Shown in pieces: positions 37,149 to 39,835 of a DNA stretch of 64,000 nucleotides. Under the pieces are notes generated by a model. It saw nothing but the letters and a program-made list of their open reading frames with translations, made no database searches and was not told the DNA's origin. Both the position numbers and the translations under genes were made by a program. Source of the DNA: a virus. Taxonomy: Duplodnaviria; Caudoviricetes. Within the stretch, counting starts at the first letter, position 1; each line of letters begins with the position of its first letter. Location of the stretch: IMG/VR virus record IMGVR_UViG_3300049198_000021, positions 64,001-128,000 of that record, one strand, 5' to 3'.

Positions 37149-37150
37149 GT

Positions 37151-37195
37151 CACCGCAATTCTGACTTGACAGTGGTGGAACATTCTGATAGGTTC
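37151..37195 (+). promoter_or_regulatory. Promoter with CACCGCAATTCT motif and TTGACA
   Basis: Motif 37151-62; TTGACA at 37166. Confidence 0.6.
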
Positions 37196-37204
37196 CTCAC
37201 TAAT

Positions 37205-37575
37205 CAAATGTAGCATCACGCGCCTAGGCGGCATCTCGTTGTAAGATTGAGACCACAGGGAGGCGAGGCGGAGGTAGTAAGTCCTTGGTCGGACCAAACC
37301 CCGAGACGGACCAAACTGCGATCGAAAAGGCGGATTGTCATTTACCGAAGTGCTTGGTGTGGTAGGTAAGCCCGGTTCCAGTGGGGCCAGATGGGCAAGC
37401 CCCTTCTCACGCGTGGTAGGTCTTACAAGACCGCTCGAAGCGCGGGGATTGTTTCAAGCATCCAAACCAACACGGTAGCCCATAGTGGGTAGCGTTGGTT
37501 TGGCGGGTGGGCTCCCGAAAGCAGCCCTGTCTCCTCCCAGACTGGCCCGGCGGTGAAAGCCGCCGGGTCCTTTTT
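37205..37575 (+). ncRNA. Candidate large structured non-coding RNA
   Basis: No credible ORF; promoter upstream, terminator downstream; several long-range complementary segments. Confidence 0.55.
37544..37575 (+). terminator. Intrinsic terminator
   Basis: GGCCCGGCGGT GAAA GCCGCCGGGTC CTTTTT. Confidence 0.8.
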
Positions 37576-37591
37576 CCGGAAGTTCTTCTCC

Positions 37592-39364
37592 TTGGCTGAT
37601 AAAATCACAAAGCGGCAAGCCCGCACCTTCGCTCAGCGACAGGCGCTCTATGCTACGCGTCAGTCCAAGCAGCAGATGATGGAGAATGTCCCGCTCTTCG
37701 CGAACTGGGACTATGCCAACTGGCGCTTGATCTGGCTGGCGATCCGCCATGCCATGATCGGCGAAGTCGAGATCAAGAAGCACGGCACCGAATATCTACC
37801 CCAGCCGGAAGGTATGGACGAAAGCCAGTATTCGGCCTACCTTGATCGCGCTGTTTTCTACAACATGGTCTACCGCACCGTCACCGGCCTCACCGGTGCG
37901 ATCTATCGGCGTGACCCGCGCTTGATGAAAGCCGGCCCCAAGGTCCGCGAGCTTTCGAAGCGCATCTCCAAGGACGGCCTGTCCCTCAAGCTGTTCGCCA
38001 AGGTCATCACGCAGGAAATGCTCTCGACCGGACGCTATGGCGTTCTGGTTGACAAGACCGACGATGCAAACAGCCTGACCGCCAACCCTTACCTCGCGGG
38101 CTACACCTGCGAGAATATCTTGGACTGGACGACGACTGAGATCGATGGCCGGGACGAGTTCGACTACATCCTGCTGCGCGAGTTCAGCGTCGATCGCCGT
38201 TTCTTCGAAATGATCGCTGATCAGGTGGTTCCGAACGCCACCTACGGCCAGTTGTTCACCGTCTACCGGGTCCTCAGGCTCATCTACAACGAGATGGACA
38301 ACCGCTGGGAATACCGGCAGGAACTCTACGCTCGTGGTTCGGCCGACGCCGATCTTTCGGAAGAGCCGATCATCACGACCCCGATGGTATTTGGCGTCCC
38401 GATGAAGCGCATCCCGTTCCGCTTCTTCAATGCCACGACCAATCTAGGCGACATCGAAAAGCCGCCGATCCTCGACATCCTGACGCTCAACCTCTCGCAC
38501 TACAAGAGCTACGCTCAGCTTGAGCATGGCCGCTTCTACACCGCCAACCCGGTCTATTACGTCTCGGGCGGACAGGAAGATGACGAATACCACATCGGCC
38601 CGTCGGTCGTCTGGGAAATCGGCAACGGTGAGAAGGCCGGTATCATCGAGTTCAACGGCTCTGGTATGAAGAGCCTTGAGAACGCCTTGCAGCAAAAGGA
38701 GACGCAGGTCGCTTCGCTGGGTGGTCGGTTGCTGGGCGACTCTTCAACTGCCGGCCAGTCGGACAATCAGGTCAAGCTCAAGGACCGCAACGAAGCGTCC
38801 TTGCTTCTCAACGTCACCACGGTCCTCAACGAGAACTTCACCGAACTGCTGACCATCCTTGGAAACTGGATGAACGAACGCTCGGAAGGTCTGGAGTTCC
38901 GGGTCAACCAAGACTTCCTGCTCGATCAGGCAGCCGCCCGCGAGTTCCGCGCCATCACGATGATGTATCAGGCCGGGCTCATTGGTATCGAGATCATCTA
39001 CGAATACTTCCTCAAGGCGGATGTCATTCCTGAGTATGTGACTCTGGAAATGTTCACCAAGATGCTGGAAGATCAGGCTCAGTTCCCGAACAACCCAGAC
39101 TTCGAAAGCCGCCAGCAAGGGTTCCCGGATGCCCGGACCCAGCGCGCCGACGAACTGGCTCGCGATCTGGACGACAACGAGACCGATCGCCTCGACACCG
39201 AATTGGAATCGGACGAAGCGATCGCCGAAGAGTCCCGCAAGTCAGCCGAGAAGGTTGCCAAGTCACAGCCCAAGATCGCGCCTGTCCCGGCGACTGCCAA
39301 GCAGGCAATGCAAAAAGACGCCCCAGCGGTGGCTCCGGCCCCAAAGCCACAGCCAAAGGCGTAA
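37592..39364 (+). CDS. Portal protein (DUF4055-like)
   Basis: YLP......Y.AYL.RAVFYN, GRYGVLVD, KPPILDI..LNLSHY; start placed at TTG 37592 because the track start lies inside the terminator. Confidence 0.88.
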   Translation: MADKITKRQARTFAQRQALYATRQSKQQMMENVPLFANWDYANWRLIWLAIRHAMIGEVEIKKHGTEYLPQPEGMDESQYSAYLDRAVFYNMVYRTVTGLTGAIYRRDPRLMKAGPKVRELSKRISKDGLSLKLFAKVITQEMLSTGRYGVLVDKTDDANSLTANPYLAGYTCENILDWTTTEIDGRDEFDYILLREFSVDRRFFEMIADQVVPNATYGQLFTVYRVLRLIYNEMDNRWEYRQELYARGSADADLSEEPIITTPMVFGVPMKRIPFRFFNATTNLGDIEKPPILDILTLNLSHYKSYAQLEHGRFYTANPVYYVSGGQEDDEYHIGPSVVWEIGNGEKAGIIEFNGSGMKSLENALQQKETQVASLGGRLLGDSSTAGQSDNQVKLKDRNEASLLLNVTTVLNENFTELLTILGNWMNERSEGLEFRVNQDFLLDQAAAREFRAITMMYQAGLIGIEIIYEYFLKADVIPEYVTLEMFTKMLEDQAQFPNNPDFESRQQGFPDARTQRADELARDLDDNETDRLDTELESDEAIAEESRKSAEKVAKSQPKIAPVPATAKQAMQKDAPAVAPAPKPQPKA

Positions 39365-39558: not shown

Positions 39559-39603
39559 CACCGCCATTTTAGCTTGACAGTGCATGGAAAATCTCGTATC
39601 CTT
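39559..39603 (+). promoter_or_regulatory. Promoter of the head operon with CACCGCCATTTT motif
   Basis: Motif 39559-70; TTGACA at 39574; TATCCT at 39597. Confidence 0.7.
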
Positions 39604-39835
39604 GTCGGCACATTGGAATTGAACGCGATTACCGGGGTCCGGAACAACCGCTTCTTCCACTTCCCAAACAACTGGCTCCGGGGGAGCCTTCACCCAATCC
39701 CCCAAGGTTCGGAACAAGAAGTAACGCGCCGGTGCGCCGGCAGTCAGCCTTCTTGTTCTGGGAAATCCTCTGGAGGGTCCGGAGGTCGCGACGTGAGACG
39801 CGTTTATCTCCAGAACCCTCGGTGAGGATTTCTCA

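Follow-up and report, generated by a model that had tools for sequence, protein, structure and literature searches.

A conserved structured RNA ahead of the portal gene of phiCbK-related phages with a stretch complementary to early-gene ribosome-binding sites

The interval 37149-37591 of the window (the whole stretch of 64,000 nt of virus DNA that was analysed) lies between an ORF of 474 aa, for which no family is assigned, and the portal gene, and the question raised by the locus is what a long conserved stretch with its own transcription signals does at this place. The virus record carrying it, that of a large Erythrobacter-type phage, is 176.5 kb long and holds the RNA in a single copy. An earlier note, made from the letters of the window, had read the interval as a structured non-coding RNA with its own promoter and terminator, held together by crossing long-range helices and perhaps serving in packaging or assembly. 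The analysis upholds a conserved structured RNA that has both transcription signals and belongs to no curated family; most of the proposed fold and the packaging role found no support.

Organization of the locus

The elements of the transcription unit and the gene that follows it are:

37166 to 37194, + strand: promoter read from the sequence, with the -35 element TTGACA at 37166-71, a 14-nt spacer and an extended -10 element TGATAGGTT at 37186-94
37201 to 37575, + strand: non-coding RNA of ~370 nt, with its 5' end predicted near 37201
37544 to 37575, + strand: intrinsic terminator called by the scan, with an 11-bp stem, the loop UGAA and U5
37592 to 39364, + strand: portal gene (DUF4055, phrog_145), assigned from Pfam and PHROG matches

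The unit 37166-37575 is a conserved non-coding unit in which the TTGACA promoter is followed by the RNA of ~370 nt, a hairpin and then U5. The TTGACA element that had been noticed at 37166 is present together with the extended -10, and TTGAC stands in register in all but one of the 12 distinct versions of the RNA described below, the exception (L015) having a TTGAC-like sequence. A simple promoter scan does not call this promoter, because TAGGTT is a poor version of TATAAT. It is distinct from the ~30 promoters of the early cassettes and resembles a host-type promoter, which gives no timing of expression. The terminator noticed at 37544-75 is likewise found by the terminator scan, as a hairpin at 37544-69 with T5 at 37571-75, and a strong hairpin followed by U4-U5 is present in every version with differing hairpin sequences and energies of -16 to -41 kcal/mol; the GAAA cap that had been proposed for such hairpins is not conserved in the terminator loop. 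From these signals we infer both the transcription of the RNA and its termination.

The portal gene starts at TTG 37592, 17 nt past the U run and with no Shine-Dalgarno sequence ahead of it, and in the other versions starts with ATG, GTG or TTG at the equivalent place. The RNA region, described in the earlier note as free of ORFs, has on its + strand only ORFs of 33-47 aa, and its non-coding nature is borne out by the pattern of change. Substitutions relative to the version L009 are spread evenly over the codon phases (39/37/38) and many 1-2-nt indels separate the region from its relatives, whereas from 37592 on the changes concentrate at third codon positions and indels are absent. The stretch upstream of 37592 is therefore non-coding. 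Further downstream, the scaffold gene is preceded at 39575-39835 by another promoter of this class (TTGACAGTG..N..TATCCT) and a leader of ~230 nt.

Homologues in related phages

The relatives of the source virus are the Erythrobacter phages XM05 and vB_EliS-L02 (L02), the Sphingobium phage Lacusarx and the Citromicrobium phage RXM, with vB_EliS-L02 and Lacusarx being phiCbK-like siphophages according to the literature. Homologues of the RNA were gathered by BLAST of phage records, from portal-anchored IMG/VR loci and by DNA pattern scans of viral, metagenome and genome collections. Twelve distinct versions are known from these sources, each directly upstream of a portal gene, and their carriers are Sphingomonadales phages related to phiCbK, namely XM05, vB_EliS-L02, Lacusarx and metagenomic contigs; nhmmer matches to the RNA in relatives have E values of 1e-47 to 1e-148. 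Common to all versions are the TTGAC-type promoter, several sequence blocks and U4-U5 after a terminator hairpin whose sequence varies.

The BLAST search returned XM05, with 79% identity over 550 nt, and a core of L02. The viral pattern scan gave 73 stretches. Of the loci gathered, 32 fit the family profile and are all copies of eight sequence types; the sole new type is that of L041, L053, L058, L066 and L087, and the remainder are chance matches. The metagenome scan gave five stretches with only L102 new, and the seven stretches from bacterial and archaeal genomes are all chance matches, so that there is no host or prophage copy in that collection. Searches based on the Lacusarx and L016 portals yielded no additional version. 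The portal leaders of phiCbK, Mesorhizobium phage Cp1R7A-A1 and Rhodobacter phage RcXuper are short and unrelated; that of phiCbK (L113:1600-1800) contains a hairpin GGGGAGGA/UCCUCCCC followed by UCCUUCUCC and has no match to phiCbK's own enriched upstream words. The published accounts of Lacusarx and of CtrA sites in these phages, where they deal with promoters, terminators and non-coding elements, show no mention of the RNA.

Fold of the RNA

The minimum-free-energy fold of the single RNA is no better than that of shuffled sequence (z = -0.59), and the fold was taken from comparison of the versions. The earlier note had proposed a collection of homologues with a covariation test, and the 12 versions show compensatory changes in several helices, making the RNA a conserved structured element. 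Its parts are:

37213 to 37360, + strand: 5' domain closed by helix P1, in which GCAUCA 37213-18 pairs with UGGUGU 37355-60
37251 to 37294, + strand: 5' pseudoknot, in which GACCA 37251-55 pairs with the loop UGGUC 37286-90
37365 to 37448, + strand: core P2-P3, the most conserved part, defined by covariation across the 12 versions
37365-73 with 37393-401, + strand: P2, GGU-AA-GCCC / GGGC-AA-GCC, with tandem purine mismatches and enclosing hairpin P2a at 37374-88
37405-14 with 37440-48, + strand: P3, UCUC-A-CGCGU / GCGCG-GGGA, with the invariant internal loops GGUAGG / GCUCGAA and hairpin P3a at 37419-32
37462 to 37503, + strand: hairpin P4, variable, CCAAACCAAC/GTTGGTTTGG
37504 to 37527, + strand: 3' pseudoknot, a small H-type pseudoknot directly ahead of the conserved CU stretch
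37527 to 37538, + strand: conserved stretch CUGUCUCCUCCC, its core UGUCUCC 37528-34 invariant in all versions

P1 is the best helix at the same relative place in most versions, being longer or different in sequence in XM05 and L02 (10 bp each), L009 (12 bp), L053 (9 bp) and Lacusarx (14-15 bp) and reading GUGUGC/GCACAU in L102; it is not individually significant in the window itself. Within the 5' domain the arms of the pseudoknot are 35 nt apart and its loop caps the hairpin GUCC 37281-84 / GGAC 37291-94, all four pairs of which change on both sides. In this pseudoknot 99% of alignment cells are paired, five of the nine pairs have changed on both sides and the covariation score is reached by none of 500 shuffles. 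The loop UGGUC is invariant apart from L016, which has GACGA/UCGUC, a compensatory change within the pseudoknot. The crossing helices 37215-22/37410-17 and 37239-46/37421-28 and the pairing of GGGAGG 37258-63 with CCTCCC 37533-38, all proposed in the earlier note, are not conserved in XM05, L009, L012 and L02 when the alignments are read by eye. The pseudoknot that is present is another one, joining 37251-55 with 37286-90.

The core comprises 27 pairs with 92.8% of cells paired, compared with 87.3 +/- 0.9 for shuffles and at most 54% for controls with slid partners; eight of the pairs show changes in both partners, and the pairing of P3 holds in 12/12 versions. The covariance model of the core scores 105 bits in the window, 90 bits in L02 and 64 bits in Lacusarx, and finds no second copy. 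The invariant internal loop of P3 (37415-37439) places GGUA opposite GAA, which we take to recall a bulged-G (sarcin-ricin or loop E) module that might bind a protein or dock RNA. The same words as in this internal loop, in the form UGUG-UGGUAGGU..CUCGAAGC-ACA-UGGAUU, are seen in human-gut phage contigs (L048:3460-3570; also L021, L024, L035, L044, L050, L060 and L064), where they sit between a template repeat like that of diversity-generating retroelements and the start of the reverse transcriptase. As candidate homologues these contigs score only 11.8 bits with the covariance model, and the match is therefore treated as chance.

The P4 hairpin, which the earlier note had placed at 37462-71/37494-503, is backed by compensatory changes in L009, but it is dispensable, being short or absent in XM05, L005, L02, L053 and L102; L005, XM05 and L015 have the form CCGGC-UUCG-GCCGG, and L02, L053 and L102 have none. 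The 3' pseudoknot consists in the window of S1, CGG 37504-06/CCG 37515-17, and S2, GGGCU 37509-13/AGCCC 37523-27. Of its cells 97.4% are paired, three of the seven pairs have changed on both sides (CG to AU; CG to UA) and its covariation score is equalled by none of 500 shuffles.

Relation to known RNA families

The screen of the curated Rfam 15 families covered riboswitches, ribozymes, RNase P, 6S and other large non-coding RNAs, and in the whole window no family reaches its gathering score. The Rfam scan that the earlier note had suggested thus matches no known family, in agreement with its remark that no complete RNase P or intron signature is present, and ARAGORN finds 0 tRNA or tmRNA genes in the window, as that note had also stated. 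When matches with E values up to 10 are considered, the 5' domain and the core are without any match and four weak matches occur, all within the 3' 90 nt. Three of these are small RNAs matched over the CU-rich motif and terminator: RF00519 (suhB/mmgR) with 18.6 bits and E = 0.26 over 37520-37583 only (gathering score 41), RF02552 (RcsR1, cuckoo-type) with 19.3 bits (gathering score 60) and RF02278 (Betaproteobacteria toxic sRNA) with 24.3 bits (gathering score 50). The fourth is a frameshift element on the opposite strand. On the sequence evidence the RNA represents a new family of structured phage RNAs, having two pseudoknots and a core of high conservation, in line with the suggestion of a possibly new phage RNA class.

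The conserved CU stretch and the word GGAGACA

The best conserved, putatively single-stranded block of the RNA is CUGUCUCCUCC(C) at 37527-38, in which the near-invariant CUGUCUCC (37527-34) is the exact complement of GGAGACA(G). This word, found at 42 ORF starts, is commoner in this genome than any other 7-mer at -18 to -3 from an ORF start, and it is the RNA's top antisense match in an unbiased scan, in which sense and reversed controls give at most 6. The CU stretch is the top antisense match to the commonest pre-start 7-mer in G000 and L02, and equivalent antisense matches hold in Lacusarx and RXM. Of the 66 genomic GGAGACA sites 43 are placed 3-8 nt (mostly 4-6) before the ATG of an ORF of at least 30 aa, and a single one of these is in the late region past the portal gene, the others belonging to the early cassette and to middle genes. 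Those in the window include:

8500 to 30200, + strand: early gene array, the putative targets, with 25 GGAGACA(G) ribosome-binding sites in this part of the window

A search of the window for the complement of the CU block brought out these units. Each early unit has a near-identical promoter, a 5'UTR of ~30 nt, the word GGAGACA(G) / GGAGACAG and an ATG 4-6 nt on, and the early leader ends in ...GGAGACAGACCAUG. The + strand of this part of the window holds ~30 such near-identical promoters (TGGAAAAAGTGCTTGACCGAATC ... CCTAGAAACGAATCA) with one small gene each, and every one of them has two GANTC words, GANTC being the site methylated by CcrM. Cassettes of the same type are present in Lacusarx, in its terminal-repeat region (PMC5648845).

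The 64 kb preceding the window add further candidate targets, middle genes on the minus strand that include those of RtcB and an RNA ligase. The flanks of the middle genes differ and GGAGACA alone is kept, and the 16S rRNA tail can match only the GGAG of the word; the word itself is therefore under selection beyond the 16S match. Among the late genes examined, some have AGGAGU and others lack any motif, as the portal gene does.

In short duplexes the CU stretch gives -12 to -19 kcal/mol with the early sites and -7 to -9 kcal/mol with three late genes carrying AGGAG, whereas the 16S tail gives about -8 kcal/mol with either class. These values are for short oligonucleotides, as duplex folding of the full RNA gave messy long-range pairings. 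In partition-function folds the mean unpaired probability of the CU stretch is 0.03-0.59 and the stretch is often paired within the RNA, and in the alignments across versions no conserved partner for it was found inside the RNA. The complementarity of GGAG and CUCC is generic for CU-rich RNAs, so that the specific part of the match is just 3-4 extra bases.

Co-variation of the stretch and the word

The pairing of UGUCUCC with GGAGACA holds in G000, XM05, L02, G001, G002, G004 and Lacusarx. XM05, L02 and three IMG/VR genomes with CUGUCUCC contain 28-44 copies of the word each (counted as GGAGACAG in one tally and as GGAGACAG or GGAGACAC, i.e. GGAGACAG/C, in the other), as against 0-5 copies per strand of the reversed word that served as control.

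In RXM the word and the leader have both changed. The RXM genome contains no GGAGACAG, and its cassettes have instead GGAGUGAC (8 copies) or GGAGCGA (7 copies), i.e. GGAG(U/C)GAC. By the covariance model RXM has no P2-P3 core, and its portal leader, which is shorter and unrelated, presents GUCGCUCC in a 16-nt hairpin loop. UCGCUCC of this loop pairs with GGAG(C/U)GA, two adjacent positions being changed on both sides, and a single G of the leader faces both the U and the C variants. The RXM leader (L004:2672-2907) is built of two modules. In the first, CUGGUGACC/GGUCACCAG closes a structured unit that U5 follows; the second is a 9-bp hairpin with the loop UCGUCGCUCCUCCCUG, complementary to RXM's own cassette ribosome-binding sites. 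In an IMG/VR relative (L011:2275-2413) only the 3' module is found before the portal gene, with the small pseudoknot, CUGUCUCCUCCC and the terminator, and a divergent minus-strand gene takes the place of the 5' domain and core. With RXM lacking the core and L011 having only the 3' module, the CU stretch before the portal gene is therefore the persistent feature, and from these two sequences it appears to act on its own without the 5' domain and core.

In Lacusarx the cassettes read GGAGACAC / GGGAGACAC and the RNA reads GUGUCUCC after the equivalent hairpin; the extra pair may stem from the hairpin's own stem and is given little weight. The homologous stretch is GUGUCUCC, which lies upstream of a second CU motif; this second motif, considered as the pairing stretch, predicts GGAGAGGCA ribosome-binding sites, and no such sites exist in Lacusarx. 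Only three lineages differ in their ribosome-binding-site word. The locus combines a conserved promoter and Rho-independent terminator of its own with a complementarity to putative targets that is kept or co-varies across relatives, which are features of a trans-acting base-pairing small RNA.

Discussion

The reading favoured here, at a probability of about one half, is that the RNA acts in trans by covering the ribosome-binding sites of early and middle phage mRNAs and so probably silences them. A structured RNA of ~370 nt would be transcribed from its own sigma-70-type promoter and end at the intrinsic terminator 17 nt before the portal start, its 3' module presenting in order the small pseudoknot, the near-invariant CUGUCUCC and the terminator hairpin. 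CUGUCUCC would pair with GGAGACA(G), the putative 'private' Shine-Dalgarno-plus-spacer sequence of ~43 early-cassette and middle genes, and this pairing of 8 bp and about -15 kcal/mol would mask the ribosome-binding site. As the RNA accumulates, the whole temporal class would no longer be translated, and its mRNAs may become open to decay; likely uses are the switch from early to late genes or immunity to superinfection by kin. The short tract of 4-5 U probably permits partial read-through of the polymerase and thereby portal mRNA. We infer the pairing in cells, its repressive effect and its timing.

A wider form of this proposal is tentative and somewhat less probable. One structured RNA would serve as a master switch by which the private Shine-Dalgarno word GGAGACAG of early and middle genes is masked, the RNA and the word co-evolving, and the RNA's large 5' domain and core may be catalytic or bring in a nuclease or the ribosome.

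Comparable strategies are known in other phages. The c4 antisense RNA of P1/P7 and the CI RNA of P4 are immunity RNAs of ~70-80 nt that are processed from a leader, have few target sites and belong to temperate elements. They resemble the present RNA in being phage RNAs in which a short conserved stretch is directed against repeated targets of their own at or near ribosome-binding sites, silencing a block of genes. The RNA described here differs in its length of ~370 nt, its large covarying fold, its ~40 targets sharing a Shine-Dalgarno word and the description of its phages as lytic, and there is no sequence similarity. In T4 the endoribonuclease RegB, which cuts within GGAG, and the repressor RegA turn early mRNAs off as a class through a signal in the ribosome-binding site. 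The logic proposed here is the same; the T4 effectors are proteins, and the proposed effector here is a pairing RNA.

Among the alternatives, a cis-acting leader or attenuator, in which a ligand or phage protein bound by the RNA sets passage through the terminator and hence the output of portal protein, is unlikely but deserves the most weight. It accounts for the classical order of promoter, long conserved leader, terminator and a start codon within 10-25 nt in every version, for the short U tracts and for a portal gene that has no other obvious promoter; the scaffold gene, the next late gene, also has a leader of ~230 nt, and no part of the RNA is better conserved than the P2-P3 core. On this view the CU-rich stretch would take part in folding or bind a protein, which leaves its match to the phage's ribosome-binding-site word unexplained. 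No antiterminator pairing with the variable terminator arm was noticed when the alignments were read by eye, no known riboswitch class in Rfam matches, and in RXM and L011, which are without the core, the CU stretch is still found before the portal gene. A leader function is compatible with the trans-acting reading as a second role. A simple base-pairing RNA does not need the conserved structured domain of ~250 nt, and the large 5' domain and core leave room for such a cis-acting role as portal leader. The arrangement resembles pR'-6S RNA-tR' of lambda in being a short terminated transcript that heads the late genes, with read-through needed for late expression. In lambda the read-through needs the Q protein, and the 6S RNA is without a known pairing role.

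It is improbable that the RNA is aimed at the host, as an anti-Shine-Dalgarno small RNA whose CUCCUCCC binds host sites of the GGAGG type in the manner of mmgR, NfeR1 and the cuckoo RNAs, and so takes part in host takeover. The weak Rfam matches to mmgR/suhB, RcsR1 and the toxic small RNA, each covering the CU motif and the terminator, are consistent with it; all of these scores are far under the gathering thresholds. Small RNAs with CCUCCUCCC motifs are known from alphaproteobacteria and provide a precedent (PMC4615179, PMC10746234). The mmgR/suhB (RF00519), RcsR1/cuckoo (RF02552) and NfeR1 RNAs likewise have a Rho-independent terminator after a CU-rich single strand (CUCCUCCC), and their hosts are in the same bacterial class, but they are of 70-150 nt, chromosomal and act on host mRNAs (PMC4615179, PMC10746234). 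Compared with these alphaproteobacterial anti-Shine-Dalgarno RNAs, the invariant part here is UGUCUCC, which is matched to the phage-specific word, whereas the UCC(C) part is lost in L102 and Lacusarx.

Still less probable is a signal at the level of DNA, in which GGAGACAG/CTGTCTCC is bound by a phage DNA-binding protein at the early genes and once before the portal gene, the complementarity of the RNA being a by-product. A double-stranded GGAGACAG site for a protein would show the same co-variation across phages. However, the word contains GGAG and is fixed 3-8 nt before the ATG, genes within operons included, which is the behaviour of a ribosome-binding site; the G of the RXM leader opposite U and C variants fits wobble pairing of RNA; and within the RNA a pseudoknot and the terminator flank the word, which is thus at the usual place of the pairing stretch of small RNAs.

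A packaging or prohead RNA bound to the portal, like the pRNA of phi29, is highly improbable: only the adjacency of the portal gene and the rich structure favour it, against which stand the absence of an Rfam match (and so of one to the pRNA family, if Rfam 15 holds it), the conventional large terminase of relatives such as Lacusarx, the lack of the RNA in RXM and in more distant relatives with the same kind of portal, and the absence of any visible loop-loop complementarity able to build a ring. Both are structured phage RNAs, and the RNA gene here adjoins that of the portal, but there is no similarity in sequence or structure model to the phi29 RNA, the packaging machinery differs and nothing ties the RNA to proheads. 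No evidence was found for the packaging or assembly role that the earlier note had drawn from the adjacency; the conserved stretch points to early-gene ribosome-binding sites and not to the portal, and the position of the RNA at the head of the late module better explains why it adjoins the portal gene.

The shut-off of early genes in large lytic phages outside the classical models is mostly unknown. Three carriers of the RNA are cultured with their hosts, XM05 with Erythrobacter sp. JL475, vB_EliS-L02 with E. litoralis DSM 8509 and Lacusarx with Sphingobium sp. IP1, which makes the trans-acting reading directly testable. If true, it would explain the odd word GGAGACA, which extends past the pairing with 16S rRNA, and infection would be timed in a new manner, by an RNA counterpart of T4 RegA/RegB that silences ~40 genes by way of one phage-specific ribosome-binding word.
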